The notes below the pieces were generated by a model, which was not told the DNA's origin, searched no databases, and saw only the letters and a program-made list of their open reading frames with translations. Made by a program: the position numbers and the translations under genes. From Verrucomicrobia bacterium UBA2970 (lineage in GTDB: Bacteria; Verrucomicrobiota; Verrucomicrobiia; Limisphaerales; AAA164-E04): DNA of 40,104 bases. Of this stretch, positions 16,554 through 36,390 are shown in pieces. The stretch is from positions 1 to 40,104 of the forward strand of contig DEAY01000329.1 in NCBI GenBank assembly GCA_002348345.1. Direction: 5' to 3'. Each line of letters starts with the position of its first letter. Position 1 is the first letter of the stretch.

Positions 16554-16732
16554 ACAATCGGCTCTTTGATTGCCAAATTCGGAGTGAATAAGCAAATGGA
16601 AATCGAATGGGATCCAACCGACGCCATGAGGCGGCCATCATGGGATCGATCAGTATTTCGTCTTGATTTGAGGGCGTCTGCTCTGTTTTGTATGCGGAGG
16701 AAGAGTTGGAAATAAACAGGAAGATCAAGCGA

Positions 16733-17155: not shown

Positions 17156-19420
17156 TCAGTCCTCGAAGTCTTCGCCCGTGATGCGTTCCACTGCCGAACG
17201 CGCGCGGGCCTTGACGTATCGACTCCGATCGCGTTGGGCCAATTCCTTGAGGCGCGGGACCGTGGCTTCGGCCTGACTCCCCAGTTGGCCGAGTCGCTCG
17301 GCCGAGTAGGCGCGAACACCGGAACTTCGGCTATCCAAGCCATCCTGATAATGTGGATATTGACTCGGGTCCGCAGGGATTTTCCGGAGAGCCTGTAGAA
17401 TGTTCGGGACGTAGTCCTCTTTCCCGAGCAACGCCATCAGGGCGGAGGTGGCTGGGATCGCATCCTCTTCGAGCATGCCAAGATTCTTGGCAGCGACGTT
17501 TTGGATGTCTGAGTTGGAATCCTTCAAGGCTTCCAGGCTCAAGTCGAAAATGGCCTCACTATCTCGGCTCACCCGACCGAAGGCATCGAGCGCTGCCTCT
17601 CGAATGACGGGTTCCTCGTGCGCGGTGGCGGTTCGAAGCACTTCGATGATTCGAGGCTGATCCTGATCGAGTTCTCCGAGGCAGCGAATGGCCGCCAGTT
17701 GCAAGGCACCCTCGCTTGTGGTCGCTCGATCGGCGATTTGGATTCCGGTGGACTTCGAGGCAGATCCGAGCGCCCCCAGCGCCTTGAGGGTGGCGATCTG
17801 AATCTCTTCGCTGGGATCTTGAATCAGTGCAGTGAGACGATTGGATTGGCTGCGAGCCGGTTCACCGATGCTGGCAATCGCCTGGGTACTGGCCAGCCGG
17901 ATTCTGTGGTCCGAATCCTCGAGAAGCTCGCCAAGCCGTTCGATGGTGGCGCGGTCGGAAAGATCAATGGCGGGGATCGCCTTGGCGGCCGCGTGGCGGG
18001 CGATCGGTTCGGCGTCCTGAAGGAGCCGCCGGATATGGTCGGTGTATTTTGACGGGTCACCGGAGATGGCCACCAAGCTAAGGAGGCTAGCTGCCCGAAT
18101 GGAAGGGTGAGGATCGTCCAGTAGGCGCTCGATCGTCCGATCCGCGTTCCGGCCATCAGCCCCCAATCGTTGGATCGCGTAGAGGCTCGCCAGGCGAACG
18201 TTGATGTGGTCGTGAGTCAGGCCCTGGGCAAGTTTTGGAAGGCCAGGGATGCCGTAGTTTCCCAGGCTCGGAACGATCCAATGGGAGGCGTCCAGCGGCT
18301 TGGATGTCGAGGTTTCGGCCAAGTGGGTGAAAAGCGCCTCCGCCGCCGAAGGGCCGAGGGAAGCAATCGCTTTTCGAAAGGGTTTGGCTTGGGGTTGGCT
18401 GCCATAGCCGTCGACCAGGACAATCAATTGGGGAACGGCTTCGAGAGCGGGAGTCCCCATTCGCCCCAGCAGGTCCGCGGCCCAAAGTTGTGTGGCGAGA
18501 TCGTCGGTGTCAAGGCGTTCCCGGAGAGGCGCAACGGTAAGTTCACTGGGCAGATCCAGAAGGCAGTTGGCGACCTCGTGTTTGACCGCGTCGTCGGTGT
18601 GGTCTGAGAGTGACCAAGCCAATGACGAAAGCGTTTCGGGGTCAAGCCCGGTGGCACGCAGGGTGCGAAGGGCGGCGGCTTGAAGATCGGGGGCTTGGTG
18701 AGTCCTTGCTATCGGGATGAGTTGATCGGCGAGTGCCAGGGCTAGCGGTCCCGCCGTCTCGAGTGCGAGGAGGGCGGCGAGGAGGGCGGGATGATGATCC
18801 CCCTCCAGGGTTTTGCTCAGTCCTTCCAGGGCCGAGGGACCCATGCGCCCGAGCGACTCGGCGCTGTGCTGGCGGACGCGTTCGTCCTCGTCCCGCAGGC
18901 ATTGGAGTAAAGCCGGGATTGCGACGGCACCTTCCTCGCCGATCCAGCCGAAGGCTTTGGCGACCCCTGAGCGAATACTGGCATTCTCGTCTTTCAAGGC
19001 CGCTTGAAGCGGCGGAATCGCGGCGGGGCCCATATTGCCAAGGGCGTAAGCAGAGCGATACCACTTCGCGTTTTCTCCTCGTCGGCCCTGTCCGGTGAGA
19101 TCCTCGATGAGTGTGGGGATGGCAGGGGTGGCCGCACTCCCGATTCGAGCCAGCGCGGTGACGCTATGAAACCAAACCTGAGTATCAGGGTCGTCCAGGG
19201 CGGCGGCGAGGGCATCCACGGCCGGTCCAGCCTCGGCTCCCAGTTGGCTCAAAGCCAAGGCGGCGTCTCGGCGTTCCTGAACCACCGAACGATCTTTCCC
19301 GGGGAGCTGAAGCGCTTTGATGAGCGGGTCCAAATGCACGCTTCGCTCTTGAGCGAGGAGATCAAGGGAGGCAAGAAGGCCGCTGCAAAGGAGCAGTAAT
19401 GGATACAATCGATTGGGCAT
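17156..19420 (-). CDS. Secreted HEAT-repeat (PBS-lyase HEAT-like) protein
   Basis: The start is trimmed to the ATG at 19418-19420 (MPNRLYPLLLLCSGLLASLDLLAQ, a signal peptide). There are many ~30-aa repeats of the form 'LxxaLxDxdxxVRxxAaxALgxiG', e.g. 'LDDPDTQVWFHSVTALARIG', 'LKDENASIRSGVAKAFGWIG', 'LRDEDERVRQHSAESLGRMG'. Confidence 0.85.
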   Translation of the reverse strand: MPNRLYPLLLLCSGLLASLDLLAQERSVHLDPLIKALQLPGKDRSVVQERRDAALALSQLGAEAGPAVDALAAALDDPDTQVWFHSVTALARIGSAATPAIPTLIEDLTGQGRRGENAKWYRSAYALGNMGPAAIPPLQAALKDENASIRSGVAKAFGWIGEEGAVAIPALLQCLRDEDERVRQHSAESLGRMGPSALEGLSKTLEGDHHPALLAALLALETAGPLALALADQLIPIARTHQAPDLQAAALRTLRATGLDPETLSSLAWSLSDHTDDAVKHEVANCLLDLPSELTVAPLRERLDTDDLATQLWAADLLGRMGTPALEAVPQLIVLVDGYGSQPQAKPFRKAIASLGPSAAEALFTHLAETSTSKPLDASHWIVPSLGNYGIPGLPKLAQGLTHDHINVRLASLYAIQRLGADGRNADRTIERLLDDPHPSIRAASLLSLVAISGDPSKYTDHIRRLLQDAEPIARHAAAKAIPAIDLSDRATIERLGELLEDSDHRIRLASTQAIASIGEPARSQSNRLTALIQDPSEEIQIATLKALGALGSASKSTGIQIADRATTSEGALQLAAIRCLGELDQDQPRIIEVLRTATAHEEPVIREAALDAFGRVSRDSEAIFDLSLEALKDSNSDIQNVAAKNLGMLEEDAIPATSALMALLGKEDYVPNILQALRKIPADPSQYPHYQDGLDSRSSGVRAYSAERLGQLGSQAEATVPRLKELAQRDRSRYVKARARSAVERITGEDFED

Positions 19421-19510
19421 GATAAGCTCCGAAAGACCACCGCCTGCTGCTGCCAACGTAGAACCCCGGCAAGGGCCGGACGGGCGGATGCGGGTGATTT
19501 AGTCCGTCAA

Positions 19511-20866
19511 TCAGGTAAAGAGCCGGGTGATCGGTCCCGTGCTGTCTCCGAATCGAGCCTGGTGGACCCCCATTTGGTCTAGCATGGAAAGATAGAGATT
19601 CGACATCGGCGTTTCAAAGTGATAGCGGAGATGCCGGCCCGGTTTGATCGCGCCTCCCGCCTTCCCTGCCAGGAGAATCGGCAGATTCTCGTTATTGTGA
19701 CGGTTCCCGTCGCTAATGCCCGCTCCGTAGACCACCATACAGTTATCCAGCAAACTGCCGTCGCCTTCGGGGATCGACTTCAAGCGCTGAAGAATATAGG
19801 ACACCTGGCGCGCGTGAAATTCATTGATGTCACTGATCTTACGTAACTTCTCGGAATCCCCGCCGTGGTGAGAGAGCGAGTGGTGCCCCTCATTGACACC
19901 AATGAAGCGGTAGCTCTTGTTACTTCCTTCATTGGCCAGCATGAAGGTGGCGATTCGCGTCATATCCGTCTGAAAGGCGAGCACCATCATATCCCCCATG
20001 AGGCGGATATGCTCTTCGTAGGACGACGGAATGCCATCGGGGAGATCAAAGGATTCCAGGTATTCCGGGCGCTGGTGGGCATCTTGCTCGGCGCGTTCGA
20101 GTCGAAGCTCAATCTCGCGAACGGCGGTGAGGTATTCATCGAGCTTGACCCGGTCCTTACCTCCCACTTTGCGGTGGATTCGTTTGGCATCTTCAAGCAC
20201 GAAGTCGAGGATGCTGTTCTGGAATCGACGACGTCGAACGGCGCTCTCTGACTGTTCGGCGTCATTCTGGTTCCCGAAGAGCCGCTCGAAGACCAAACGG
20301 GGGTTGGTTTCCTTGGTCATCGGGGTGGTGGCATCTCGCCATGAGATGTTGTTGGAGTAAGAACAGGCGTAGCCGGAATCGCATTTTCCTGATTGCCGTC
20401 CCTTCTCCGTACCGAGCTCAAGGGAAGCGAAACGGGTTTCGTGGCCAACCCCTTGGGCGGCGACCTGATCGACTGAAACGCCGGCTCGGATCTCAGCACC
20501 CTCACTCTTGAGGGGTTGGACACCCGTGAGAAAGACCCCGGCCGAACGGGCGTGGTCGCCCGGTCCGTCCCCGTTGCCCCGGCCTTTGTCGTTGGTGAGG
20601 CCGGTCAGAACGGTGAGGTCCCGCTTGATCGGCTCCATCGTCTTGAGGATTTTGGGCAATTCGAAATGAGGGCCTTCGCGCTCGGGCGTCCAATCGGGCA
20701 TGTGCATCCCGTTGGGTACAAAGAGGTAGGCCATTCGGACCGGAGCGGGCTTTGCGTTCCCCGCCAGGGCCCTGGTGGGCAACATCGCATCAAGCATGGG
20801 AAGCGCCATGGAAGTGCCGAGCCCTCGGAGAAAGGTTCTGCGAGCAAGCGGGTGTTTCGGGTTCAT
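19511..20866 (-). CDS. DUF1552 (HxxSHH) domain-containing protein, Tat-exported (pair 3 partner)
   Basis: Twin-arginine N-terminus 'LARRTFLRGLGTSMALPMLDAM'. Family motif 'GHHSLSHHGGD' (HxxSHH). The ATG shares 1 nt with the upstream gene's TAA (TAATG at 20864-20868). Confidence 0.9.
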   Translation of the reverse strand: MNPKHPLARRTFLRGLGTSMALPMLDAMLPTRALAGNAKPAPVRMAYLFVPNGMHMPDWTPEREGPHFELPKILKTMEPIKRDLTVLTGLTNDKGRGNGDGPGDHARSAGVFLTGVQPLKSEGAEIRAGVSVDQVAAQGVGHETRFASLELGTEKGRQSGKCDSGYACSYSNNISWRDATTPMTKETNPRLVFERLFGNQNDAEQSESAVRRRRFQNSILDFVLEDAKRIHRKVGGKDRVKLDEYLTAVREIELRLERAEQDAHQRPEYLESFDLPDGIPSSYEEHIRLMGDMMVLAFQTDMTRIATFMLANEGSNKSYRFIGVNEGHHSLSHHGGDSEKLRKISDINEFHARQVSYILQRLKSIPEGDGSLLDNCMVVYGAGISDGNRHNNENLPILLAGKAGGAIKPGRHLRYHFETPMSNLYLSMLDQMGVHQARFGDSTGPITRLFT

Positions 20867-23220
20867 TATTCTTCTTGTTGTAAACTCACCATCTGGAACG
20901 GCGAACTCAGGACGATCGCCTCAACGAGCGCCGAGAATCGGAAGTCCCCTGCGATGAGGGAGGCCACGATATCGTCGGTTGCACACCGATCATAGTATTC
21001 TAAGCCCCTGCCAAGTGCAAACGTCAACATTTTCTCGGTGATCGTTTGAAGGAATGTCGTTTCGGTTTTGAGGATCCCGATGAGTTCCTTTGGGCCCGCG
21101 AAAGACCTTCCATCGGGCAGGATACCGGACGGATCGATTGGAAAGTTGCCATCCAATTCTCGCCAAGCACCGATGGCGTCAAAGTTTTCAAAAGCAAAAC
21201 CAATGGGGTCCATCTTGGCATGGCAGGTGGCGCACTCGGACTTGGATCGATGCAGTTCAAGGCGTTCGCGGAGAGAGGCCGATGCAGCGGCCTCCTGACT
21301 CTCCTCGAGCTCCTCGACATTGGGCGGCGGCGGGGGGGGAGGAGTACCCAGAATCTGCTCCAAAACCCATTTTCCCCGGATCACGGGAGATGTCCGGGTG
21401 GGATTGGCAGTGAGCGCCAGGGTGCTTGCTTGGGTGAGGACGCCGCCTCGAGGACTGTCCCGGTTCAGGGTGACGCGTTGGAACACTTCCGTGTATGATC
21501 CCTCCATGCCGTAGTGATCAGCGAGGCGACGATCGACAAAAGTAAAATCAGCGTCGAGAAACTCGAGGACGCTTCGATCCTCCTTCATGATGGCACCAAA
21601 AAACAGCTCGCTTTCTCGGCGCATTGACTCGCGGAGTGCCTCCGTGAAGCCGGGAAACAGGTCCGGATCCGGAGTGATGGTGTCGAGGTTTCGGAACTGC
21701 AGCCACTGGCCCGCGAAATGAGTGACCAGGGCCCTGGCTTTCGAGTCCCCGAGCATCCGGCGAACCTGAACACGAAGGACACTGGGGTCCATCAGCATCC
21801 CGTTTCCGGCCAAATACAGCAGCTCATCGTCTGGCATGCTGCTCCAGAGAAAATACGAGAGGCGAGATGCCATTTCGTAGTCTGTAAGCCTCCGGGTCGA
21901 TGCGCCCTCTGAACCGGGTTGTCCGTCGAGTTCCCAGCGGAAAAGAAAGCTGGGTGAAACGAGGACGGCCTGAACGGCGACTTGAAGGGATTCCTCGAAG
22001 GTCACTCCCTCTTGGAGAGCGTATTCAACCAGATTCAGGAGGCGGTCGATCTCATCGGGGTCGGCAGGACGCCGAAAGGCCCGCGTCACCAATGACGTCA
22101 GAATGGCGCTGGCCGCCGTTATTTCTTCCCCCGGTTCCGGTGGTTGAGGAATCAGGCGGGTATGGGATCCAGGGAGTCGGGGGCGTGGTTGGTCCAGGGG
22201 GCCTTCGAGGGTTACCGAATCGACAAAGAGATTTCGATCTCCGTTCAGTTCGGAAATGGGGTGGTCTTGCCGATTGTAGTTGTTGGTAAAGCCCAGTTCC
22301 AAGCGATGGGAACTTGCCGGGAGCGTTAAGTTCAGGGTGTAGGTGCCCGGTTTTGTTGCGACGGCGCTGACCTCAACGAGTTGGGCTTCCTTCCGATTGA
22401 TTCGAACGGAGAGCTGTGCTGGATCGGGACCCGCCTGTTGGCCGTAGGCACGGATCTTGATGAGGTAGTCCCCAGCCTCGCCGGTCCGAAAGAGATGGGT
22501 GGCCGTCCCCTCTCGGTAGAATCCCATGACAGACCCCTCTGCTCGAACGTGGTCTTCGGTCCTGGAACGGAACGTCTCGGCTTCAAACGTCGTCCGGGGC
22601 GGCCATGGCGGGACTTGGCCAACAATCGCTTTTTGGGCGATTTGCTCGGCGGCCGTGAGGTATTTCTCCATCAGGATGGGAGAGAGCGAGAGGACGTCGC
22701 CGATATTGTCGAATCCATAACCGACTTCATCGAGCGGGAAGTCCGCTGCCGGCTCGAAATCGACGCCCATGAGATCGCGAATGGTATGATTGTATTCCGC
22801 GCGATTCAGTCGCCTGATGGTGACCCGGCCGGGTTGCTCGATCTCATCGCAATCGAACCTGGCCAGCTCCTTGTTGATGAACTCTGCGAGACGAATGCGG
22901 TCTTCCTCAGAAGGTTGAGGCTGATCCTCGGGGGGCATTTCGCGTTCGAGAACAAGGTCCCGGAGGGTTTCCCAGAGGTCTCGCTCCGTGTAGATCGCGT
23001 GATCCGGCCCGTAGGCTTGGAGATTGAGATCTGCCTTCTGCTTTTCATCGCCGTGACACCCGTAGCAATAGCGGTCGAGAAGTGGGCGAGCGATCTTGGT
23101 AAATCCCGAGGGCTCACCCGCCCGAATTGAGGGCAAGACGGCCAGTTGCAGGAGGGCCAGGGCGAGTGAACCCACCCGGATTCTCCGAATCAACACCCTA
23201 AAGGAGTATTTCATTCCCAT
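20866..23220 (-). CDS. DUF1592/DUF1595/DUF1587/DUF1588/DUF1585-type (PSCyt3/PSD) CxxCH protein, long paralog
   Basis: The start is trimmed to the ATG at 23218-23220 (MGMKYSFRVLIRRIRVGSLALALLQLAVL). The N-terminal motif is 'LLDRYCYGCHG'. 'RRLNRAEYNHTIRDLMGVD', 'FDNIGDVLSLSPILMEKY' and a 7-Pro tract lead to the C-terminal 'CATCHAKMDPIGFAFENFDAIGAWR'. Confidence 0.9.
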   Translation of the reverse strand: MGMKYSFRVLIRRIRVGSLALALLQLAVLPSIRAGEPSGFTKIARPLLDRYCYGCHGDEKQKADLNLQAYGPDHAIYTERDLWETLRDLVLEREMPPEDQPQPSEEDRIRLAEFINKELARFDCDEIEQPGRVTIRRLNRAEYNHTIRDLMGVDFEPAADFPLDEVGYGFDNIGDVLSLSPILMEKYLTAAEQIAQKAIVGQVPPWPPRTTFEAETFRSRTEDHVRAEGSVMGFYREGTATHLFRTGEAGDYLIKIRAYGQQAGPDPAQLSVRINRKEAQLVEVSAVATKPGTYTLNLTLPASSHRLELGFTNNYNRQDHPISELNGDRNLFVDSVTLEGPLDQPRPRLPGSHTRLIPQPPEPGEEITAASAILTSLVTRAFRRPADPDEIDRLLNLVEYALQEGVTFEESLQVAVQAVLVSPSFLFRWELDGQPGSEGASTRRLTDYEMASRLSYFLWSSMPDDELLYLAGNGMLMDPSVLRVQVRRMLGDSKARALVTHFAGQWLQFRNLDTITPDPDLFPGFTEALRESMRRESELFFGAIMKEDRSVLEFLDADFTFVDRRLADHYGMEGSYTEVFQRVTLNRDSPRGGVLTQASTLALTANPTRTSPVIRGKWVLEQILGTPPPPPPPNVEELEESQEAAASASLRERLELHRSKSECATCHAKMDPIGFAFENFDAIGAWRELDGNFPIDPSGILPDGRSFAGPKELIGILKTETTFLQTITEKMLTFALGRGLEYYDRCATDDIVASLIAGDFRFSALVEAIVLSSPFQMVSLQQEE

Positions 23221-23489
23221 GAACCTGACCCGCGACTGATTTGACTCGCTGGTAATAATCGCTGGAGGGCGATGAGCGGACATCACAGGGAGCATGCCCC
23301 GCTGACTCCCATTTGCAAGCTCTCGCGAAGGGAGTCAACACGAAGTGTGGAAGGGCGGCTTGTGTTTGGGTCTTCGATGTCTTTTATGGGAGGAATAGCT
23401 TGGCAATTCAGGGTGTCGTGATTTAGGAACAGGAAAAGGACCCCATGGCTGGTCGCGACCTGCTCGGCTGAGCCCCTCTCTCCCAAGGA

Positions 23490-24830
23490 CTATGCCAACA
23501 CCCCGGGGAGTAAGCCGTCGCTGTCGGCGAATCGATCCATCGGCGTGTCGAAGGCCTCCAACATGGAACGATAGAGATTGGCAAGCGGCGTCAATCGGTC
23601 GAACTTGAGATGTTGTCCCGTGCGAATACGGTTGCCCGCCCGTCCGGCGAGAACGAGGGGAAGGTTCCGGGGGCTATGTTTGTTTCCATCTCGAAGGCCC
23701 GATCCGAAAAGGATCATGGAATGATCCAGAACACTCCCCTCTCCCTCCTTCATGGCTTTGAGTTTTGAGAGGAGATAGGCATATTGCTCGACGTGCCATT
23801 GAGCGATCCGCTGATACTGCACCAGGTTTTCTTCCTTGTTCTCGTGATGCGACAGGGAGTGGTGTCCGCCTTGCACCCCCTCCAGAAAGGAGAAGTTGGT
23901 ATTCCCGACGGCGTTGCCAAACATAAACGTACAAACTCGTGTGGTGTCGGTCTGGAATGCCAGCGCAATCATGTCGAGCATCAGTCGAACGTGTTCGGCG
24001 TGTTCCCGGGGAATCCCCGATGGCTTGACACCTGGATCCATATCGACGAGGGGTTTCCAAGTCTTGCCCTCTGACCGACTGGCTTCCTCGACCCGTTTTT
24101 CAAGTGATCGGACCGATTCCAGATAGTCGTCGATTCGAGATTGATCCGCCTGCCCGACTCGGCCCTTGAGTTGCCGGGCGTCGTCGAGAACTCGATCCAG
24201 GAGAAGCGACTGGTATTGATTCTTCTCCGGCCGGGGATAGGCGGCTCGAAAGAGGCGCTCGTAAACGAGCCGGGGATTGATCTCCCGGGCCAGGGGACGC
24301 GTGGGACGGCTCCAGGCGATATGGGAACCGTAAACCCGGGTGTAGCCAACATTCGTGTCCACTCCGATGCTGACCGGGTGAATGGCCAGTTCGAGGGACC
24401 GTAGCGGCGTTTGGCCGGCGATTCCCGCGGCGGCGATTTGATCCATCGAGATGCCGTTGCTATTGAGATCGAAGCCCAAAGACTTGCTGATCGTTTGGCA
24501 GGTCAGAAACCCGGATGTCTTGACGTAATGTCCGTCTCCATAGTCGCTGGCTTGGTTCCAAAGGTTGGTGGGAATGAGGAGCTCGTCTTTGAGCGGCTCA
24601 AGGGGAGTCAGGGTTTTGGAAAGTTTGAACTCTCGACCGGTGCCTGTCGGTGTCCACTGGTCCTCTCGAACGCCATTGGGCATGAAGAGGATTCCCAGGC
24701 GCTTGGGACGCGGTGCTTCCGACGCTCGGAGCGTCCCTGGATCCATGGCTTCCAACCAGGGCAGGGCGAGCGCCGCTCCCGCCCCCTTTAAGAGGGTGCG
24801 TCGGGATAGGGCTTGGTGAGGTCTAGTCAT
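23490..24830 (-). CDS. DUF1552 (HxxSHH) domain-containing protein, Tat-exported (pair 2 partner)
   Basis: The start is trimmed to the ATG at 24828-24830 (MTRPHQALSRRTLLKGAGAALALPWLEAM, a twin-Arg motif). 'GGHHSLSHHENK' is present. It is collinear with 19511-20866. There is an 8-nt overlap with the upstream gene's 3' end (24823-24830). Confidence 0.9.
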   Translation of the reverse strand: MTRPHQALSRRTLLKGAGAALALPWLEAMDPGTLRASEAPRPKRLGILFMPNGVREDQWTPTGTGREFKLSKTLTPLEPLKDELLIPTNLWNQASDYGDGHYVKTSGFLTCQTISKSLGFDLNSNGISMDQIAAAGIAGQTPLRSLELAIHPVSIGVDTNVGYTRVYGSHIAWSRPTRPLAREINPRLVYERLFRAAYPRPEKNQYQSLLLDRVLDDARQLKGRVGQADQSRIDDYLESVRSLEKRVEEASRSEGKTWKPLVDMDPGVKPSGIPREHAEHVRLMLDMIALAFQTDTTRVCTFMFGNAVGNTNFSFLEGVQGGHHSLSHHENKEENLVQYQRIAQWHVEQYAYLLSKLKAMKEGEGSVLDHSMILFGSGLRDGNKHSPRNLPLVLAGRAGNRIRTGQHLKFDRLTPLANLYRSMLEAFDTPMDRFADSDGLLPGVLA

Positions 24831-26787
24831 GTCGAATCGTCTCCGCTGTGTTAAGGGTGACACCGGTCTCCGGATTGCTGCCAGCCTTGTAGCGGAACGG
24901 GACGCTGTTGATGACCCCCCACAGCAAGGCATGGGATCGAAATCCGTTGTGGCCTAATTCAGTCACAATCTCATCGACCGCGCAATAATCTTCGTGGGTC
25001 AGGCCGCGTGAGAGTGCATAACCCAGCATTTTCTTGGTGAGGTGCTTTAGGAACGGTTCCTTTCGGTCCAGGAGCAACCTTTTTAGTGCCTCGGGGCCCG
25101 AGAAGGAGGTGCCATCCGGGAGGGAGGCTTGAGGATCAATCGGATGCCCCTGATCGGTGGTTCTCCAGCGACCGAGGACGTCGTAGTTTTCCAGGGAGAA
25201 CCCCAGGGGATCGATTCGATCATGACAGTTCGCGCAGGTTGGGTGTTGGCGGTGAACCTCCAGGCGCTCACGAAGCGAAGTCGGTGCTCGACCGGTTGCT
25301 TCAGCTTCCAGACCGGGGACATCGGGCGGCGGGGGGGGTGGGGGATCCCCGAGCAGCGTGTCCAGAATCCACTTTCCCCTGAGGACGGGACTGGTTCGGT
25401 GGGGATGGGACGAGATCGCCAGAATGGCCGCCATTCCAAGGAGGCCTCCCCGGTGGGGTTGATCCGTGATTTCCACTCGCTTTGGTTGCTCCCGGAATGT
25501 TCCCTGGATGCCGTAATGTCGAGCCAGTCTTCGGTTGACGTAGGTGTAGTCGGCTTGGATCAAGTCGAGCAGCGAGCGATTCTCCTGGAGGATTTCATGA
25601 AAGAAAAAGACCGGCTCATATTTCATTCCCCCTTCCAGTTCTGAGTCGTAGCCCTTGATGGACGGATCGGGCCGAAACTCCCTGCCGAGCACGCGGGTTC
25701 CCACCCACTGTTCGATAAAGTTCTGAGCAAAGCTTCTGACCTTTCTGGCATGCGGATCTTCCAACATTCGGAGCATTTGGCGACGCAGGGTCTCCGATTC
25801 GTGTAAACGGCCTTCGGTGGCGACTTGTTGTAATTCATCATCGGGGGGGGCTCCCCAGAGAAAGTAGGCGAGGCGGGTTGCAAGTTCATGTGGAGAGACC
25901 GGAATGGGGTGGGGATGGGGATTGGGTTCCTCGATGATGAACAGAAACTTGGGGGACACGAGAACAGCCGAAAGGGTGGTCTTCAGGGCGAGGGCGAACG
26001 AGGGTTCCTTGTGGTAGACCGAATCGAAAACTTCGCGGTAGGCTTGATGCTCTTCCGGACTGACGGGCCTCCGAAAGGCACGGGGAAGGAAGGATTCGAG
26101 AATGTCGTCGGCGGCCGCTTGCGGGCTGAGCGTGTCGCTGGGTTGAGCAGTGAGGAAGCGACGATTGGATCGGGTATCGGCAAAGCCGTATTCCACGGCG
26201 GTCTGGGACGCTTCCAGGTATTTCTCCGCATGAATGGGTGACAGGAAAAGGGTCTCCGCGGCGTTGTCAAATCCTTCGCCTCCGGCGCCGTCATCGGGAA
26301 GGGCCTCTCCCGCGTCGAAATGAATATCCAGGAGATGCCGAACCGACGCCGAATACTCGCTGCGGTTGAGTCGTCGGGTGATCGCCGGTCCGGGGCGGAT
26401 TCCGTTTTCACAGGCAGCCTCTCGCAGCGTGGACTCAATCCACCGAACAAATGTTTGCCGCTCGTCGTGGCTGGGTTGATCGACGTCTTCATCGTCAGGC
26501 GGCATCTCTCCCTGACGCACTCGAGCCACATACTGATCCCAGTCAAGGGCCCGGCTGACGATTTGCTTTTCGGAGGTGACCGTCGAGAAATCGAGCTTTC
26601 CTTTGGGCCTTGGCGGTTGGTGGCAGGAAACGCAGTAGGATTGAATAAACCGGACTCCCGACTCCTGCGAGTCGACCAGGAGGGTGGTCTGCAGAAGGAG
26701 CGTGAGCGGGATGAGCTTCCAGTGACGCAAGGGCTTGGAGAACGCGGTCGCCGGGGTGATCTCGATGCGCGATGGGCTGTGGTTCAT
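24823..26787 (-). CDS. DUF1592/DUF1595/DUF1587/DUF1588/DUF1585-type (PSCyt3/PSD) CxxCH protein, short paralog
   Basis: ATG at 26785-26787 (MNHSPSRIE...WKLIPLTLLLQTTLL); the ORF-track start at 26820 is a TTG. Motifs: 'IQSYCVSCHQP', 'RRLNRSEYSASVRHLLDIH', 'FDNAAETLFLSPIHAEKY', PPPPPPP, and 'CANCHDRIDPLGFSLENYDVLGRWR'. Confidence 0.9.
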   Translation of the reverse strand: MNHSPSRIEITPATAFSKPLRHWKLIPLTLLLQTTLLVDSQESGVRFIQSYCVSCHQPPRPKGKLDFSTVTSEKQIVSRALDWDQYVARVRQGEMPPDDEDVDQPSHDERQTFVRWIESTLREAACENGIRPGPAITRRLNRSEYSASVRHLLDIHFDAGEALPDDGAGGEGFDNAAETLFLSPIHAEKYLEASQTAVEYGFADTRSNRRFLTAQPSDTLSPQAAADDILESFLPRAFRRPVSPEEHQAYREVFDSVYHKEPSFALALKTTLSAVLVSPKFLFIIEEPNPHPHPIPVSPHELATRLAYFLWGAPPDDELQQVATEGRLHESETLRRQMLRMLEDPHARKVRSFAQNFIEQWVGTRVLGREFRPDPSIKGYDSELEGGMKYEPVFFFHEILQENRSLLDLIQADYTYVNRRLARHYGIQGTFREQPKRVEITDQPHRGGLLGMAAILAISSHPHRTSPVLRGKWILDTLLGDPPPPPPPDVPGLEAEATGRAPTSLRERLEVHRQHPTCANCHDRIDPLGFSLENYDVLGRWRTTDQGHPIDPQASLPDGTSFSGPEALKRLLLDRKEPFLKHLTKKMLGYALSRGLTHEDYCAVDEIVTELGHNGFRSHALLWGVINSVPFRYKAGSNPETGVTLNTAETIRHD

Positions 26788-26838
26788 ATGTCGCCGATGG
26801 AGCCAAGCCCTCTGCGACAAGAGGGGGGCTTGATCGTT

Positions 26839-28275
26839 CTACGCCAAGATATCATGGAGGATGTTGCCATGGACGTCGGTCAGTCGAACGTCCCGACCCG
26901 CGTAGCGATAGGTCAGGAGCTGATGGTCGAGGCCCAGCTGGTGGAGGACGGTGGCCCAGAGGTCGTAAATGGTCGTGGGTTGGTTGATGACGTGATAACC
27001 GTAGTCGTCGGTGGCACCTCGGATGCTCCCCCCCCGAACCCCGCCGCCCGCCAACCAGAGGCTGAAGCCGAAGGGGTTGTGATCCCGACCGTTGGACCCT
27101 TGTGAAAAGGGAGTGCGGCCGAACTCACCGGTGAAGACGATCAGGGTTTGGTCGAGCAATCCGCGAGACTTGAGGTCCTTGATCAGTCCCGCAATCGGTT
27201 GGTCCACCTGGTAAGCCATGGCGCGGTGCCCTTTTTCGAGGTCACCGTGCTGATCCCAAGGATTGGCGGCACCTCCCGCCCCAATTCGCTCCGTGAGGCA
27301 GGAGAGCTCAATGAAACGGACACCTTTTTCGACCAAACGTCTCGCCAGAAGGGCTTGTCGGCCGTAGGCGACCTTTTCCGAGTCGCCGTCATCGAGACCG
27401 TAGAGCCGACGCGTGGCTTCGCTTTCACCGCTGATGTCGCAGATCTCCGGGATTGACGACTGCATTCGATAGGCCGTCTCGTAATTCTGGATGGCGGCTT
27501 CGATGTTGGCGTGGCCCTTGACCGTCGTGGAGAATCCACGGTCAATCTGGTTAACGAAGTCGAGCCGGGAGCGTTGCAGGTCAAGCGCTTGACTGGGTTT
27601 GATGTTGGTGACGGCTTCATCCCCATCGGCCTGAAGAATCGATGCCTGATGCTGTGCGGGAAGAAACCCGCTGCTGTAGAGCCCGACGCCGCCGTGAGGT
27701 GGAACGGCATGGCTGCTCTCCAGCGCGACATAGCTGGGGAGGTTTTCGTTGGCCGATCCGAGTCCATAGCTAATCCAAGCTCCGGCACTCGGGTAACCGA
27801 GAAAGGGAAAACCCGAATGCATCGCGAAATTACCCTGGGCATGCTCATTGACGGGCGTGGTCATCGACCGGATGACCGCCAGGTCGTCAGCACAATCCGC
27901 AAGATGAGGAAAAATACTGCTGAGTGGAATGCCGCTTTGACCGTGTTGCTTGAACGAGAAGGGCGACGGAAAAATCTTCCCGTTGTTGTTGAATTGCGTG
28001 CGTTCGATTTTGACCGGCATCGGCTGACCGCCCTCCCGAGCCAGGCGGGGCTTGGGGTCGAAAGAGTCGAGGTGGGAGATGCCTCCGGACATGTAGCAGA
28101 GAATGATGCTTTTGGCCTTGGGAGGATGGATGAGGGCCGAGTGGGCCTTGGATTGAGCCAGCGCCCGATGAGAGGGTGCTCGACCCAGGAGGCCTGCCAG
28201 CGCCAACATTCCGAAGCCGCTCGAGCACCGTTCGAGCATTCTTCGACGGGAGATGGGGGATGGATTATCGAACAT
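26839..28275 (-). CDS. DUF1501 domain-containing protein (alkaline-phosphatase/sulfatase-like fold), Tat-exported (pair 1 partner)
   Basis: Twin-Arg N-terminus '[24 protein letters not shown]'. Family signature '[21 protein letters not shown]'. C-terminal '[12 protein letters not shown] ... [17 protein letters not shown]'. The ATG lies 11 nt inside the 3' end of the upstream DUF1553 gene. Confidence 0.92.
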
Positions 28276-31200
28276 AGATAAACTCCTTCATGTTAAAAAC
28301 GGCCAGAGCGAGATCCGTCCAGACTTCGTCTCGTCCGGCGAGGGGAGTGGCTTCTTTCAGGCGCCCGAGGGTCCGTGAAAGGACGTCGTGGGTTTGGGTC
28401 AGTCGTTTCCAGGTCGAGCGCTCTGATTCCGAAAGCGCAGCCAACAGATCGGCCTGGGAAATAAAGTCGCCCTGCTTGCGGGAGGCCGCCTTGACCTCTT
28501 TCACGGTGAGCGGTCGGTCGTAGAGTCGTGCTTCGAAAATCCTTCCTCGCAACATCTTGTCTTTGGAAGGGGTGGCATGCCGGAGCCCAAAGACGATCTC
28601 GGCTTCCCCATTTTCAAAGGTCCGTGGGCCCGAAGATTTGTATTTGCTTCCGTAGGGTTCTCCGTTGCGATAGCCGAGGATGGTGCCGTCTCGTCGATAA
28701 ACGATTGCAATGTGGACGGGTTCCCGATCGGCTCTGTCTTCTTGAGGGGCCTTGAAATCCTCGGTTCGAGAAAAGCCCTCGCTTCCCGCCATCCAGCGTC
28801 GGGATTCTCGCTCGCCAAAGACCATCGCATCAAAGATTTCACCGTCCGGCGTCTGCAGAGAGATCGCAGCCCCTCCCTGTTGATCGAGATCGTCGAGTTG
28901 AACCCAGGCTTCGAAGGTTTTTTCGGTCAAGTCTTTCCGGATTCGAGCGCTTTGCGCGTAAGCGTCACCGCCATCGACGACCAGAGCGCCGTCCTGAATG
29001 ATGGCGCCCCCCTTCAGTTCGGCGTCGAGATTACCCACGTTGTCTTTTCCATCTTCGTCAAAGAGCCACTGTGCGGTTGGATTGAGAAAGGCCGGATTGG
29101 TTCCCTTGGTTTCTTGATCCGGTCGGATTCGTGCGCGGGCCTTGGCCTCGAGATCGATCCGTTGCCGGTTGATGTTGGCCAGTTCCTCCGTTTTGCTTTT
29201 GAAGGCCTCCGCCATGACCTCGTATTCCCGCCCTTGGCGTTCGATGAAGTTAACGGCTTGTTGCCGTTCCTGCGGACTGGGTCGGCGTCCGAATGATCGC
29301 ATCCAGATGCGTGAAACCAGCTCTTTGTGAGGCGTTCTTGCTGCTTCGAGTCCGAGTTGCCGCCCCCAATGTCGGGCGGTTTCCACGACGAAGTCGCTGT
29401 TCATCATCGTCAAGGACTGACTCGGCACCGTTGTGGCGTTGCGACGGCCTTGGGAGGAAAACGGGACGGGGGCGTCAAAGGTATGGAGAAAGGGATCGAG
29501 GCGGTTCCGAACCACATTGACATAGACCGAACGCCTTGGTTCGTGACCGGGCACCGGGTTGCCGAACGCGCGAAGATCCAAACGATGGGAGACCTGAAGT
29601 AAGGCATCGCGTATCGCCTCCGCTTCCAGTCGTTGTACGTTAAAATGGGTGAGGAGGTCGTTGGCAGGATCGAGGTCCCGAGCCTCGGGGGAGGGCTCGC
29701 TCGCGAGTCGCCACGTTCGACTGGTGACGAGGTAGCGGATCAATTGTTTGATCGACCAGTTGGCCCGGGTCGTCAAATAGCTGCCCAGGTGGTCCAGAAG
29801 CGCGGGATGGGAAGGCCGGGCTCCCAAACGACCCAGATTGTCTGGGGTGCTGACAATCCCTCGTCCAAATAAGTGGTGCCAGACTCGGTTCACGAACACG
29901 CGTCGGGTGAGGGGATTGTCGTCCCGCAGAAGATCTTCCGCCAATTGTCGCCGCCCGCTCAGCTGGGTTCGGTAGGGTGAGGGATCGATGGCCTCGAGGA
30001 ACCGTCGGGGGACCTTGGCGAGTGGTTTCGTGTGATTGCCCCGATCAAAGAGCGCTTGGTCTTGGGCCTTCCACTCCGCAACCGTCGGAATTCGTCGGGG
30101 AATAGGGATGGCCCGCTCAAGGCGTCGGTATTCCTGGATGAGGGCCGCAGCGCTCGGAAGCTGATCGATTTTGTTTGGCAGGAGGGCCAGGCGAAGGCAT
30201 TCATCGAGCAGCTCCGCCTGATCGTCGCTCAGGGTACCGGCTTGCCAAGCTTGAAGGGCGAGCTTGATGGCGGTCGAGTAGGCTCCGATCAGGTCGTCGA
30301 TCTGTTCGACAGAGTTTTCTTGGGTGATGGAAAAGATCGGTGCCAGATATCGCCGCGGAGTTTTGGGAGGCGTGGGTTCCCCCTTCTTGACCATGACGAT
30401 TTCCCGAACACCAAACCAGGACCTTGGTTTGTCTCTAACCAGGAGCGGGGCATCGTCGGAGGTTGCAACCTCAAGATGAATCTCGTCACCACTCCAATAG
30501 TCGACGTCATATCGTTGCCAGTGCCATCGGTCTTGATCATCCCTCATGTCGCGGACAGGGTAGACGGTGCCGTTGCGGGGATAATTGAACACGACGTAGC
30601 GCGACATTGACCGTTCGGCACCCTTTAGTCGGAGCCAGATTTCGTAGGCGTCATCCAAGTCGATATCGGGTGAGGTGAGCAGGCCTCCATGCTTGGTCGA
30701 AACCAAGTGAGTGTAGGTCCCACCTGGATGGATTCCTGAGACGGCCGTCTCCCCATTGGCACTCAAACTAAACGCTCCGGCCGGAACCGGGCCCGTTTTC
30801 AGGCCGATCCCCTCACGGTACCACTTTTGGTGGTCGGCTGACGTTGAGAGATCCCATCGCTGAGGATAACCGCGTTTCCGATGCGCCTTCCAGGCAAGGT
30901 CTCGCTGTTCCCAATCCGATTTTACGGCCTCCCAAGCGGCCGAGAACGATTTTTTGAGAGCCGTCTCCCGGAGGGGTCGGAGGAGCTCTCCCTTAGGGTC
31001 CTTGTCTTCCTCAGTGATGAAGGCCTTGAGTCGGTCTTTCACGGTCGGCAGGGCAGCGAGCCAATCCGTGGCAATGGCGTCCCGGATGCTTGGTTTCAAG
31101 GTTTCAATGGAGGAACGATTGCGGTCCTGTATTTCCGGCAAGTCAATGGCTTTTCGTCCGGGACGTGTCGACCCCATGATGCCGAAAAAGGCGTAATAAT

Positions 31201-32359
31201 CTTTCTGGCTGATCGCATCAAATTTATGGTTGTGACAGCGGGCGCATGAGACGGTGAGACCGAGAAACGCCTTGGAGAACACGTTGATCTGGTCGTCGGT
31301 GAAGCGGACTTTTTCGTCGAGTGCATCGGTCGGCGCAAAGCCATGGAAGACCATTCGCCAGTGAGCGGTTCCGATGAGAGATTCATTGATTCCGAGTTCC
31401 CGATTGAGGCGCGGCGATTCGAGTTGGTCCCCTGCGACATGCTCGCGAACCAGTTGGTCGAACGGGATATCCTGGTTCAAGGCCCGGATGAGATAGTCAC
31501 GGTAGAAGTGCGCATTGACGATTCGCGGGTCCCCTTCCGAACCGTGGGATTCGGCATAGCGGATCCAGTCCATCCAATGTCGAGCCCAACGTTCCCCAAA
31601 ATGGGGACTCGCGAGGAGTTCGTCGACTTGTTCGGAGATCGCGGTTTCGGGATGCCGCTGATAGGACGCCACGAAGTCATCGATTTGATGAGGGGTGGGA
31701 GGGAGACCGATCAGGGCGAAATAAAGTCGACGCACCAGGATTGGGGCTGGGGCGGGTCCGTTGGCGTCCAATCCGGCTTCGGCCCGTGTTGCTTCGACGA
31801 ATTGGTCGACGGGGTGAGGGGACCATGAAGAGGGCGGCGGTTTGGGATTGGTTAGGGGCTGAAAACTCCACCAGTTCTTGCGGCGTGCAAGGACGGCGTC
31901 CCAATTCTGATCCCGATCGACTTCCGCTTGGGTGGGCGGTTGCTCTCGAGGATCAGGCGCTCCCATCTGAACCCATTGGACAAAATCATGAACGATTGCC
32001 TGATCAAGTTGAGCCCCGGACTTGGGCATTTTGAGATCGTCGAGGGAGTGCCGGATCGCCTGGATCAGGAGACTTTCATCCGGTTTTCCGGGTAGAATCA
32101 CCGGTCCGCTGTTGCCCCCCGCCTGCCAGGCGGCGCGATGGTCCAAACTAAGCCCACCTTTTTTTGGCCCCGCGCTGCGATGACATTCGTAGCAATCTTG
32201 CGCCAAAATCGGTCGAATCCGCGACTCAAAGAATTCCACCTGTTCAGGGGAGAGGTTTTCGGCGGGGTTAGCGTGGAGGACGATCGCCGTCACGCCCGTG
32301 AGGAGTGGAATGAGTCCGGTTCCTCTTGAATCGGGAACCATTCGGTTGATTAAGCGCAT
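28265..32359 (-). CDS. PSCyt1/DUF1549 (PSCyt2)/DUF1553 (PSD1) protein with a C-proximal LamG-like domain
   Basis: The start is trimmed to the ATG at 32357-32359 ([28 protein letters not shown], a membrane anchor or signal). The 98-aa Arg/Pro/Ser-rich extension upstream would run into the LysR gene. Motifs: '[12 protein letters not shown]', DUF1549-type '[21 protein letters not shown]', DUF1553-type '[18 protein letters not shown]', a LamG-like block (28475-29074), and the family-typical C-terminus '[13 protein letters not shown]'. Confidence 0.92.
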
Positions 32360-32431
32360 TTTGGAAGGACAACGTGGATCCGATTTTCCGGGATTGAGGG
32401 GGGAGCGTAGGACCTTTCCCCATCGGGTGGT

Positions 32432-32460
32432 AGGATAAAAAAGGGTCAGTTGCCGTTCAA
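32432..32460 (-). promoter_or_regulatory. Candidate sigma70-like promoter for the DUF1553-led gene array
   Basis: On the minus strand this reads TTGAAC (32455-32460) - 17 nt - TATCCT (32432-37). It lies in the 115-nt spacer between the LysR stop and the DUF1553 ATG. This is pattern match only, and promoter consensus in this phylum is not well defined. Confidence 0.3.
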
Positions 32461-32474
32461 TGGGAAGAAGGCCG

Positions 32475-33377
32475 TCAAGCACTTCCCTTCGCAGCGGCCC
32501 GTTGTCGTTCGAGCTCCTCAGCTTGTCGGCGGCAGAGGGCAACGACCCGCCGACCCGCCGACGAGAGTTTGTGGCGCCAAAGCGCTCCGACACGGATCGG
32601 GGGAATGGATTTGACGGGCAGTCGATGGATCGACGGATGGGCCTCCCCGCCAAGCGCCTCGATGCCCAGTCCCACCCCGATCCCCTTCGCGACGTAGCGT
32701 TCGATCAGGTCCAGCGAACTCAATTCGATCAAGGGCGGCCAACTCAGTTCGTTTTCCTCGAGGAAGGAAACGAACTGTTTGGTCACTGTCTCCTCGGGGG
32801 TGAGTGAGATCAGCGGTTCGGAAATCCGATCTTGGCCCCAAAAATGGTCCAGCGAGGTGATCCCGGAATCCCGTCGAACCAGAAGGCAAATCTGGATTTC
32901 CATCAGCGGGGTGTGTTCGAAGCCCTTCGGAGCCGTTTCCTGAATCGGGCTGATTGCGAGGTCGATTTGTTCAGCCAGGAGTCGCTCGACGACTTCATGG
33001 TGATGTCCCTCTCTCAGGGCCAACTTCACCGAGGGCGATGTTTCCCGGAGGTCTCGAACGATTTCGGGGAAATAGCGGTCCAGAACAATCTTGGGAGCGC
33101 CGAGCCGGATCAATTCGGAGGTTCCATCGCGGATCTGGTCGCAGATTCCCTCGATATTGTCGAAGAAGGGGCGAATGGACTCATACAAGCGCTTTCCCGC
33201 GGGACTCAGGGCAAATGGTCGTCGTTGAAACAGCTTCACCCCGAGGTTGTCTTCTAGCTGGATGATTTGGCCCGAGACCGCGGGTTGCTGGATGCCGTAG
33301 GGCATATTTCGGACGGCCTCCATGATGCCACCGTGCTTGGCGACGTAGTAAAACAACTCAAGATGGTGGATATTCAT
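32475..33377 (-). CDS. LysR-family transcriptional regulator
   Basis: The start is trimmed to the ATG at 33375-33377. The N-terminal wHTH 'MNIHHLELFYYVAKHGGIMEAVRNMPYGIQQPAVSGQIIQLEDNLGVKLFQRRP' matches the LTTR pattern, followed by a ~200-aa substrate-binding-like domain. Confidence 0.92.
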   Translation of the reverse strand: MNIHHLELFYYVAKHGGIMEAVRNMPYGIQQPAVSGQIIQLEDNLGVKLFQRRPFALSPAGKRLYESIRPFFDNIEGICDQIRDGTSELIRLGAPKIVLDRYFPEIVRDLRETSPSVKLALREGHHHEVVERLLAEQIDLAISPIQETAPKGFEHTPLMEIQICLLVRRDSGITSLDHFWGQDRISEPLISLTPEETVTKQFVSFLEENELSWPPLIELSSLDLIERYVAKGIGVGLGIEALGGEAHPSIHRLPVKSIPPIRVGALWRHKLSSAGRRVVALCRRQAEELERQRAAAKGSA

Positions 33378-34563: not shown

Positions 34564-34957
34564 TGATAGGATGCTTTTGAATCTGTGCCTAATTTCGGTC
34601 AAAATTCAAACAAACCATCCACTCTTGACACAAAAGGCAATTTTCACCCTCCACATTAACTAAAACGACTCGATGGAGCTGGCCCCGGCCGAAAAGCTTG
34701 TTGTCACCCCTGACAAAATCTGGTCTTCCCAAAGCCTCTTCAATTGAACCCAGAACTCAACTTCGAGGCGGGCCCCGCAACAGAAAAAACTCAAACGGAC
34801 CAATTTCGAGCCAATATTTCTCGGTCCTAACATGGGGATTATCCCCTCGGAACCAGCGGATTATCAAACAATTCCTCAGAAACCCTTGCCACCATTCCAA
34901 AACCTAACTATAAGATAGGCGCTTGTGAAAAATGATTCAGAAAACTGGAAAATACCA

Positions 34958-34986
34958 TTGACAGTCGGGTTGTTTTTTACGAGATT
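34958..34986 (+). promoter_or_regulatory. Candidate sigma70-like promoter of the secreted-repeat/PEP-CTERM operon
   Basis: TTGACA (34958-34963) - 17 nt - GAGATT (34981-34986), about 30 nt upstream of the ATG at 35019, in a long AT-richer intergenic region. Pattern match only. Confidence 0.3.
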
Positions 34987-35018
34987 GGACGCACACACGG
35001 TAATTAGATAAGTAAAAA

Positions 35019-35624: not shown

Positions 35625-35665
35625 TCACACCTCACCTAAACAACCAAAAGACAATAAAACATAGT

Positions 35666-36169: not shown

Positions 36170-36188
36170 TCTCAACTTGTTCTCATTC

Positions 36189-36220
36189 GGCCGCTCCACA
36201 TCGGAGCGGCCATTTTTTTT
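36189..36220 (+). terminator. Rho-independent terminator
   Basis: Perfect 9-bp GC-rich stem ggccgctcc (36189-36197) / ggagcggcc (36203-36211), 5-nt loop acatc, then a + T8 (36213-36220). It begins 20 nt after the TAA at 36167-36169. Confidence 0.85.
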
Positions 36221-36347
36221 GTCTACTGTCCCAACGCATCAGGAATTGATAAACCAACAAGTTACAAATCACAAAATGGAGCAGAATCAACGGAACGTAT
36301 CGCTCTTAGACGAATAATTGACGGATTCATCTTTTTGTGAGGCGACA

Positions 36348-36377
36348 TTGACGGCACCTGTAAGAAATAGGTAACCT
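36348..36377 (+). promoter_or_regulatory. Candidate promoter of tRNA-Glu (and possibly the downstream ORF)
   Basis: TTGACG (36348-36353) - 18 nt - TAACCT (36372-36377), 13 nt before the mature tRNA 5' end. The octamer ATTGACGG occurs twice (36317-36324 and 36347-36354). Pattern match only. Confidence 0.3.
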
Positions 36378-36390
36378 GACCTCACAGATT

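Follow-up and report, generated by a model that had tools for sequence, protein, structure and literature searches.

The PSCyt and PSD domains, which were reportedly named by Studholme et al. in 2004, are present together with proteins of the DUF1501 and DUF1552 families in the locus described here: three gene pairs lying downstream of a LysR-type regulator gene in DNA of Verrucomicrobia bacterium UBA2970 (GenBank assembly GCA_002348345.1, contig DEAY01000329.1, positions 1 to 40,104 of the forward strand). The whole of this stretch, with its 40,104 nucleotides (nt), is termed the window. The closest described systems are the following: (i) DUF1501 with PSCyt1/PSCyt2/PSD1 proteins, described as a "conserved genetic module" of Planctomycetes-Verrucomicrobia-Chlamydiae (PVC) bacteria (Kamneva et al., 2012; PMC3542564); (ii) group III PSCyt3 genes, which also encode PSD4, PSD2, PSD3 and PSD5 and usually lie beside DUF1552, in a study that counted as many as 71 genes for DUF1501 and 17 for DUF1552 per metagenome-assembled genome (MAG) (He et al., 2017; PMC5615132, Text S1 and Fig. 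S7b); (iii) the DUF1800-DUF1501 operon pair of Proteobacteria, found in polysaccharide-related clusters (Gonçalves et al., 2016; PMC5122149); and (iv) Cbp2D of Cellvibrio japonicus, a protein implicated in polysaccharide degradation that contains carbohydrate-binding modules (CBMs), c-type cytochrome domains, of which X183 can reduce lytic polysaccharide monooxygenases (LPMOs), and DUF1587/PSD3 (Branch et al., 2021; PMC8981238).

Probably, the locus is a lineage-specific cluster, in a population of marine Limisphaerales-like Verrucomicrobiota, of three independent copies of two known PVC module types, beside which a block ending in a LysR gene has been juxtaposed; the smaller protein of each pair would be a catalytic hydrolase or transferase. 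The copies are one pair of a PSCyt1/PSCyt2/PSD1 giant protein with DUF1501 (module 1) and two pairs of a PSCyt3/PSD2-5 giant with DUF1552 (modules 2 and 3). The original prediction for this DNA had seen in them one coordinated periplasmic pathway behind a dedicated regulator. The comparison of loci presented below identifies each pair, and not the array as a whole, as the functional unit; this concept of the pair, while correct, has already been published (Kamneva et al., 2012; He et al., 2017). The features of the locus, in the direction of transcription, are:

32475..33377, minus strand: LysR-type regulator (Pfam HTH_1, 47.4 bits; LysR_substrate, 89.9 bits)
32360..32474, minus strand: spacer of 115 nt separating LysR from module 1, where two otherwise unlinked blocks meet
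28265..32359, minus strand: module 1 giant, 1364 aa, with PSCyt1, PSCyt2/DUF1549, PSD1/DUF1553 and Laminin_G_3 (Pfam) and two CxxCH motifs
26839..28275, minus strand: module 1 partner, DUF1501 (Pfam, 448 bits), with twin-arginine motif SRRRMLE
24823..26787, minus strand: module 2 giant, 654 aa, with PSD3, PSD5, PSD4/DUF1592, PSCyt3/DUF1588 and PSD2 and two CxxCH motifs
23490..24830, minus strand: module 2 partner, DUF1552/HXXSHH (Pfam, 317 bits), with SRRTLLKG and HHSLSHH
23221..23489, minus strand: gap of 269 nt between modules 2 and 3
20866..23220, minus strand: module 3 giant, 784 aa, with the domain set of the module 2 giant plus a CBM60 insert and two CxxCH motifs
19511..20866, minus strand: module 3 partner, DUF1552/HXXSHH (Pfam, 362 bits), with ARRTFLRG and HHSLSHH
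17156..19456, minus strand: HEAT-repeat protein, with HEAT_2 in 10 stretches and an N-terminal hydrophobic signal-like segment

Giant and partner genes overlap by 11 nt in module 1, 8 nt in module 2 and 1 nt in module 3, and the same-strand gaps measure 115, 51 (modules 1 and 2), 269 and 54-90 nt (module 3 and the HEAT gene). Regarding the original prediction, its coordinates, overlaps, gaps, motifs and family calls were all correct to the base according to Pfam profiles and a motif check, and Pfam upheld every family assignment; its gap of 90 nt before the HEAT gene holds if the HEAT protein starts at Met13.

The three modules closely resemble their published counterparts. In the module 1 giant, PSCyt1 (57.7 bits), PSCyt2 (PF07583; 226.7 bits) and PSD1 (PF07587; 249.7 bits) all score above the Pfam cut-offs, and the module shares with that of Kamneva et al. 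(2012) the domain architecture (including the optional Laminin_G_3), the order of giant followed by DUF1501, the twin-arginine motif and the hydrophobic N-terminus. Nothing essential differs, except that here it adjoins two PSCyt3-type modules and is preceded by a LysR gene, a setting not characteristic of the family. In the PSD-type giants of modules 2 and 3, PSCyt3 (PF07627), PSD2, PSD3, PSD4 and PSD5 are all above the Pfam cut-off, and the module 3 giant additionally matches CBM60 at 40.7 bits. Both modules share with group III of He et al. (2017) the combination of PSCyt3 with PSD2-5, the adjacent DUF1552 (PF07586, HXXSHH) and the presence of a CBM in one copy; they differ in that CBM60 is not on the list of that paper and in that two tandem copies are found here. 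PSCyt1/Cytochrome_CBB3 is above the cut-off for the giants of modules 1 and 3 and just below it for the module 2 giant, whose N-terminus is cytochrome-c-like. A search of the module proteins against NCBIfam returned no named family for any of them.

The CxxCH motifs of the giants are CYECH at residue 56 and CARCH at residue 372 in module 1 (both retained in 64 of 68 full-length orthologues), CVSCH at 52 and CANCH at 518 in module 2 (10 of 10), and CYGCH at 52 and CATCH at 663 in module 3 (64 of 64); overall, 138 of the 142 full-length orthologues keep both. All three giants have a single N-terminal hydrophobic segment, without any further membrane-spanning stretch. The three partners carry, at the N-terminus and ahead of a hydrophobic stretch, Tat-like (twin-arginine translocation) motifs of the S/T-R-R-x-F-L-K kind (SRRRMLE, SRRTLLK and ARRTFLR), with a sub-threshold match to Pfam TAT_signal (E 0.013). 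The twin arginines R10 and R11 are conserved in at least 90% of the alignment of DUF1501 (PF07394), while R9, R10 and the HHxLSHH motif of the module 3 DUF1552 are invariant in an alignment of 22 sequences. The CxxCH and twin-arginine motifs pointed out earlier in this DNA are, hence, conserved among orthologues. In public gene calls (L252-L253, P0001), DUF1501 starts at Met13 (466 aa) and the module 3 DUF1552 at Met20 (432 aa); these late starts clip the twin-arginine motifs and are an annotation artefact that hides the Tat signal.

Evidence for the pair as the functional unit comes from orthologous loci. Loci anchored on LysR, the module 2 DUF1552, the module 3 DUF1552 and DUF1501 were collected with 10-kb flanks, one genome per species, and all proteins of the window were mapped onto the resulting 251 loci, 171 of which are orthologous module loci. 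All 77 of 77 DUF1501 loci have a giant as the gene directly upstream, and a PSD-type giant immediately precedes DUF1552 in 74 of 78 module 3 loci and 11 of 11 module 2 loci, in agreement with the earlier claim that giant and partner form a conserved unit. Their identities co-vary among loci (Spearman 0.60 and 0.78), and in each of the 150 loci that allow a comparison, the giant is less conserved than its small partner. DUF1501 shows 64-88% identity to its 80 orthologues, planctomycete ones included, and its conservation (up to 88%) exceeds that of PdxJ (70%) in the same close relative; the module 2 DUF1552 has ten close orthologues at 62-79% identity. Each module is thus shown to be an autonomous, vertically maintained two-gene unit. 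For module 3, a HEAT gene is found 3' of the DUF1552 orthologue, on the same strand and 170-2200 nt away, in 23 of 80 loci (loci in the range L092-L121), so that in Verrucomicrobiota this module may often be a three-gene unit.

The arrangement of the modules relative to one another tells a different story. The contiguity itself is real: the order Methyltransf_28, LysR, PSCyt2/PSD1, DUF1501, PSD-type giant, DUF1552, PSD-type giant is found again in two long contigs, and three shorter marine metagenome contigs, some of them from Tara Oceans samples, span the junction from LysR to PSCyt2/PSD1; Tara sample SAMEA2619840 is among those carrying this contig. An assembly chimera at this junction was considered and is ruled out, since five independent contigs (L252-L256) carry it. 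Only in the population of this window are the three modules contiguous. Among the nearest genomes, which are Limisphaerales/Pedosphaera-like Verrucomicrobiota MAGs, the closest one (CAYFGX) has all three modules within 36 kb, their order and orientation unchanged, with (i) 12.7 kb between modules 1 and 2, comprising a glycosyltransferase GT2 gene, an opposite-strand GT87 gene, a methyltransferase gene, a gene without assignment and an extracytoplasmic function (ECF) sigma factor gene; (ii) 4 kb between modules 2 and 3, comprising an opposite-strand hybrid histidine kinase gene and one gene without assignment; and (iii) a divergent peptidase gene upstream of module 1, in place of LysR. A second close MAG is without module 2 at the corresponding site. 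In the complete chromosomes of relatives, the modules are 0.2-3 Mb apart: five of these chromosomes have modules 1 and 3 separated by 0.2-1.25 Mb, and in OZ245740, a chromosome of 10.5 Mb, LysR is found at 6.6 Mb, module 2 at 8.1 Mb and module 3 at 4.8 Mb. The array of the original prediction is, in consequence, scattered over megabases in chromosomes and interrupted in the closest MAG. The proposed LysR-headed pathway thus fails the synteny test that the original prediction had set for itself: in related genomes, synteny of the pairs with LysR was never found, and synteny of the triple array is largely, though not fully, absent, one close MAG keeping the triple order without contiguity.

The regulator proposed as dedicated to the modules belongs to a different block. 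A LysR homologue within 10 kb is absent from all 171 orthologous module loci. Of the LysR orthologues, the closest three (L001-L003, 61-67% identity) retain instead the genes o201, PEP-CTERM, Methyltransf_28 and LysR, and two of the three additionally retain the TPR and HNH genes, which reproduces the right-hand end of the window. No co-directional PSCyt gene was found downstream of LysR in these three loci; in the closest of them (L001), a GCV_T-like gene and AIM24 come after LysR. The LysR gene of the window shares 20 nt with the Methyltransf_28 gene upstream of it (33358-34602, minus strand), and both genes are adjacent in three of three close relatives; therefore, LysR is probably co-transcribed with the methyltransferase gene. 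LysR is the last gene of this other conserved block, not a conserved neighbour of the modules, and it is not a dedicated module regulator in any conserved sense. As for what it may regulate instead, the wider LysR set has heterogeneous contexts: at most 7 of 80 LysR loci share any neighbour, no alternative regulon can be named from the contexts of these 80 loci, and NCBIfam searches with LysR returned only generic or unrelated LysR subfamilies, far below the cut-offs. Within the right-hand block, GC content falls from about 0.58 to 0.50-0.52 at 34000-38000, across the o201, PEP-CTERM and HNH endonuclease genes; since this low-GC stretch is conserved in L001-L003, it is not a recent island.

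A second conserved block extends leftwards from the module 3 giant and includes the DUF1552, HEAT, YHS, 567-aa protein, PdxJ, HpcH and GFO genes. The YHS gene (16688-17149, plus strand) encodes a small YHS-domain protein with a lipobox-like LAGC motif and a His/Asp-rich stretch (HHDHDHEGEHSHSH), perhaps a metal-binding lipoprotein; the gene is oriented against its two neighbours, the HEAT gene and the gene of the 567-aa protein, and its position between them is kept in L092-L099. The 567-aa protein (14892-16595, minus strand) has no Pfam or NCBIfam match, and is found at 44-57% identity beside PdxJ in five relatives.

The window is, then, the meeting point of two otherwise unlinked blocks whose intervening DNA has been lost, and the side-by-side placement of the modules behind LysR came about recently and locally and does not reflect a conserved pathway. 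Contiguity would have arisen through the loss of intervening genes and a rearrangement by which the terminal part of the Methyltransf_28-LysR block came to lie upstream. Chance is sufficient for such an outcome: module density is about 1 per 100 kb (in 1.1 Mb of unrelated Verrucomicrobiota loci), from which a rough Poisson estimate gives 0.3-0.9 three-module clusters per genome, so neither the clustering of three modules nor the adjacency of LysR exceeds chance. In this particular population, the array may be co-transcribed or locally co-regulated.

The neighbourhoods of the orthologous modules point to a different type of association. Clustering of the 1498 neighbouring open reading frames of the 171 loci showed that S1 sulfatases are the commonest neighbours of module 1 orthologues, occurring in 20 of 80 loci at distances of up to 10 kb (L181, L211, L215 and L232 among others) and frequently immediately adjacent. 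The giant is directly preceded by an IclR-type regulator gene in 9 of the 80 module 1 loci (L184, L192, L208, L220, L221, L234, L237, L245 and L246); neither kind of gene is present in this window. Module 1 orthologues are thereby shown to associate with sulfatases and IclR regulators, not with LysR. ECF sigma factors and giants combining DUF7133, HEAT and cytochrome domains also recur near modules.

With respect to the identity of the partners, for which the original prediction had suggested an alkaline-phosphatase-like or HxxSHH fold, an alkaline-phosphatase-like nature finds backing for DUF1552 in the Foldseek search of an AlphaFold2 model and for DUF1501 in weak sulfatase sequence matches. 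The model of the module 3 DUF1552 (predicted local distance difference test, pLDDT, 67) was searched with Foldseek against the PDB, and all 25 of the 25 matches at E <= 1e-3 belong to the alkaline-phosphatase superfamily, comprising S1 sulfatases, cofactor-independent phosphoglycerate mutase (iPGM), the lipoteichoic acid synthase LtaS and phosphonate monoester hydrolase (PMH). Judging from this model, DUF1552 looks to have an alkaline-phosphatase-superfamily fold, which is an addition of the present analysis. Pfam misses this predicted fold because the HXXSHH model ends at residue 355 and leaves out the C-terminal strands together with the conserved SDGNRHN motif. In a profile-profile comparison, DUF1552 and DUF1501 share a C-terminal (S/G)xG(N/R)(R/D)HN, the SDGNRHN of the former aligning weakly with the GRDHN of the latter. 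Candidate metal ligands are HHxLSHH and D386/H390 in DUF1552, and D341/H343 and D398/H399 in DUF1501. DUF1501 itself has weak Pfam matches to Sulfatase and Phosphodiest (E about 0.007-0.009; Sulfatase 16.2 bits against a cut-off of 25) and a sub-threshold PDB sequence match to GALNS (E 0.011), with the sulfatase similarity around residues 350-446 and around the C-terminal Asp-His metal-ligand region; a profile search of DUF1501 against the PDB found nothing. By these sequence similarities, DUF1501 looks distantly sulfatase- or phosphodiesterase-like.

What the partners have in common with S1 sulfatases, iPGM, LtaS and phosphonate monoester hydrolase is the core fold predicted for DUF1552, and sulfatase genes are often near module 1 orthologues. 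They differ from S1 sulfatases in several respects: (i) the formylglycine motif (Cys/Ser-x-Pro-x-Arg) is absent from the expected N-terminal position in three of three partners; (ii) neither Pfam nor PDB sequence searches gave a match above threshold (DUF1552 has no match to Pfam Sulfatase, and a PDB sequence search with four module proteins gave nothing or sub-threshold sulfatase matches only); and (iii) the haem-motif giant is an obligatory companion. Lacking the formylglycine motif, the partner is not a classical sulfatase; a classical S1 sulfatase identity was rejected on this ground and on that of a Sulfatase score below the cut-off.

Regarding the giants, the AlphaFold2 model of the module 2 protein (pLDDT 71 overall) has an all-alpha core at residues 185-365 with pLDDT above 90, and Foldseek found no significant fold match for it in the PDB (best E 0.22). 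The region around its second CxxCH is poorly modelled, as would be expected of a haem site modelled without haem. Residues 200-257 of the module 1 giant, in the PSCyt2 region, give a sub-threshold Pfam match to DUF1800 (E 0.016), and on this similarity DUF1800, which in Proteobacteria is the usual operon partner of DUF1501, and the PSCyt2-type large partners of DUF1501 may be distant homologues. The DUF1800-DUF1501 pair resembles module 1 both in this weak match and in the presence of a Tat-motif DUF1501 beside a larger protein; yet the similarity is below threshold, and haem motifs are not described for DUF1800 (Gonçalves et al., 2016). Cbp2D, in turn, shares with the PSD-type giants the combination of a PSD3/DUF1587 domain, a CBM and a c-type cytochrome, but a DUF1552 or DUF1501 partner is not described for it, and its electron donation to LPMOs is without counterpart here, no LPMO gene being present in the window (Branch et al., 2021).

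Taking these elements together, a mechanism can be proposed in which the small subunit would be catalytic, a metal-dependent hydrolase or transferase of the alkaline-phosphatase superfamily that would be folded in the cytoplasm and then exported via Tat. The large subunit would probably be exported by the Sec (general secretory) route, with which its N-terminal hydrophobic segment is consistent, and would combine c-type haems (one or two) with a novel all-alpha core and with the carbohydrate-binding modules Laminin_G_3 and CBM60, docking the enzyme on a specific periplasmic glycan or glycan ester, most likely a sulfated one; it may also act as a donor or acceptor of electrons. On this view, the three modules would represent three substrate specificities and not steps of a single pathway. 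This mechanism draws support from the CBM60 and Laminin_G_3 domains of the giants, the sulfatase and IclR neighbours, the predicted DUF1552 fold, the sulfatase similarity of DUF1501, the C-terminal motif common to the two partner families, the PSD3/DUF1587 domain of Cbp2D and the polysaccharide-related setting of the DUF1800-DUF1501 pairs. The role of the haems is its weakest part and is speculative.

Several observations weigh against this account of cluster and mechanism: (i) confidence in the DUF1552 model is moderate (pLDDT 67; template modelling, TM, scores 0.2-0.42); (ii) the DUF1552-DUF1501 profile match is weak (E 7.7e-4, probability 25%); (iii) the window is without any sulfatase or glycoside hydrolase gene; (iv) an enzyme of alkaline-phosphatase fold has no obvious need for a cytochrome partner; (v) the short same-strand gaps, without terminator-like sites, would permit read-through from LysR; and (vi) the literature searched for a characterised function of these families yielded none, in agreement with the earlier remark that they are PVC paralogue families without a defined function.

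A more ambitious variant, which we regard as unlikely, would see in the locus a newly born operon: the deletion of two stretches (12.7 kb and 4 kb), together with a rearrangement, would have joined the three modules to a captured LysR in an apparently compact lineage, each module representing a new class of two-subunit enzyme in which an alkaline-phosphatase-fold hydrolase works with a haem-c/CBM scaffold on (sulfated) glycans. If this were true, the locus would be a compact natural cassette for solving the role of PSCyt/PSD proteins with DUF1501/DUF1552.

Somewhat harder to sustain, and rather unlikely in our opinion, is the possibility that the modules are true redox enzymes, with the Tat-exported partner as an oxidoreductase that receives its cofactor in the cytoplasm and the giant as its dedicated cytochrome c acceptor, in the manner of SorAB-type sulfite dehydrogenase. 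The pairing of a Tat-exported subunit with a Sec-type haem-c subunit is typical of many periplasmic dehydrogenases, and the modules resemble it; moreover, the CxxCH motifs are strictly conserved, the N-terminal domains match PSCyt1 and Cytochrome_CBB3, and an involvement in electron transport was proposed by Kamneva et al. (2012; PMC3542564). Nevertheless, Tat export is also used by the metal-dependent phosphatases PhoD and PhoX, the DUF1552 model and the weak DUF1501 similarities point to the alkaline-phosphatase superfamily, whose members are, to our knowledge, hydrolases, transferases or mutases and not redox enzymes, and the partners have no Pfam match to other cofactor-binding families.

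The reading of LysR and the three modules as one regulon or operon, serving a single coordinated periplasmic redox and hydrolytic pathway, is decidedly unlikely and, as a conserved system, largely refuted. In its favour count the seven co-directional genes with short spacing (115, -11, 51, -8, 269 and -1 nt) and no convincing terminators, the recurrence of the arrangement in the five metagenome contigs, the order and orientation kept in the closest MAG and the fact that, among 77 distant LysR homologues, three are followed on the same strand, after 0.3-1.3 kb, by a PSCyt2/PSD1 gene that is not orthologous; two of these three cases, however, share one arrangement, and by a rough estimate of our own about 0.5 would be expected by chance. 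Besides the different context of the LysR orthologues, the megabase distances, the chance frequency of clusters and, in the closest MAG, the opposite-strand genes and separate ECF sigma factor between modules, the regulatory DNA itself speaks against it. LysR and module 1 are co-directional, unlike the divergent arrangement typical of LysR-regulated operons. In and near the 115-nt spacer no LysR-type T-N11-A dyad was found, only a GGATCC palindrome and one 6-nt inverted repeat, and the spacer showed no DNA similarity to relatives of either flank. The promoter motif of the original prediction (TTGAAC-N17-TATCCT) is indeed present in the spacer, but by our own count matches just 8 of 12 consensus positions, below the scan threshold of 9 of 12; the promoter and terminator scan of the region gave 6 sites against 5.7 ± 2.3 in shuffled sequence, with no excess. 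The 269-nt gap has no significant RNA structure (z -0.70), and no residual similarity to the 4 kb that separate modules 2 and 3 in the closest MAG was found in it.

Finally, it is highly improbable that the giants are envelope scaffold or sensor proteins whose pairing reflects shared assembly or export and not a catalytic complex, for although the large all-alpha core of the PSD-type giant has no enzyme-like fold match, HEAT-repeat proteins and DUF7133-HEAT-cytochrome giants recur beside modules with ECF sigma factors nearby, and the modules have been tied to cell-plan complexity (Kamneva et al., 2012; PMC3542564), the CBMs of the giants, the sulfatase neighbours and the conservation of the partner relative to PdxJ better fit a metabolic role.

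Elsewhere in the window, at 4411-8637 (minus strand), there is a 1408-aa giant combining DUF7133, HEAT and GDSL-lipase-like regions with a single CxxCH at residue 1163, whose gene overlaps by 4 nt that of a GFO/IDH/MocA oxidoreductase (8634-9908, minus strand). Related DUF7133-HEAT-cytochrome c giants are found directly after module orthologues in L193, L204, L136 and L139.

Under the preferred reading, that of a lineage-specific cluster of independent modules, the locus adds no new system; what it adds is the predicted fold of DUF1552, the very strong constraint on the partner, the association with sulfatases and IclR regulators, and the HEAT gene as a third member. It also holds a caution: among families so abundant, a tidy co-directional cluster behind a regulator can come from chance and genome compaction. 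At up to about 90 modules in one genome, the PSCyt/PSD giants with DUF1501/DUF1552 are among the most abundant uncharacterised families of Verrucomicrobiota and Planctomycetota, and the PSCyt/PSD families have been without an assigned function since 2004; a handle on them would inform the turnover of glycans in oceans and lakes.

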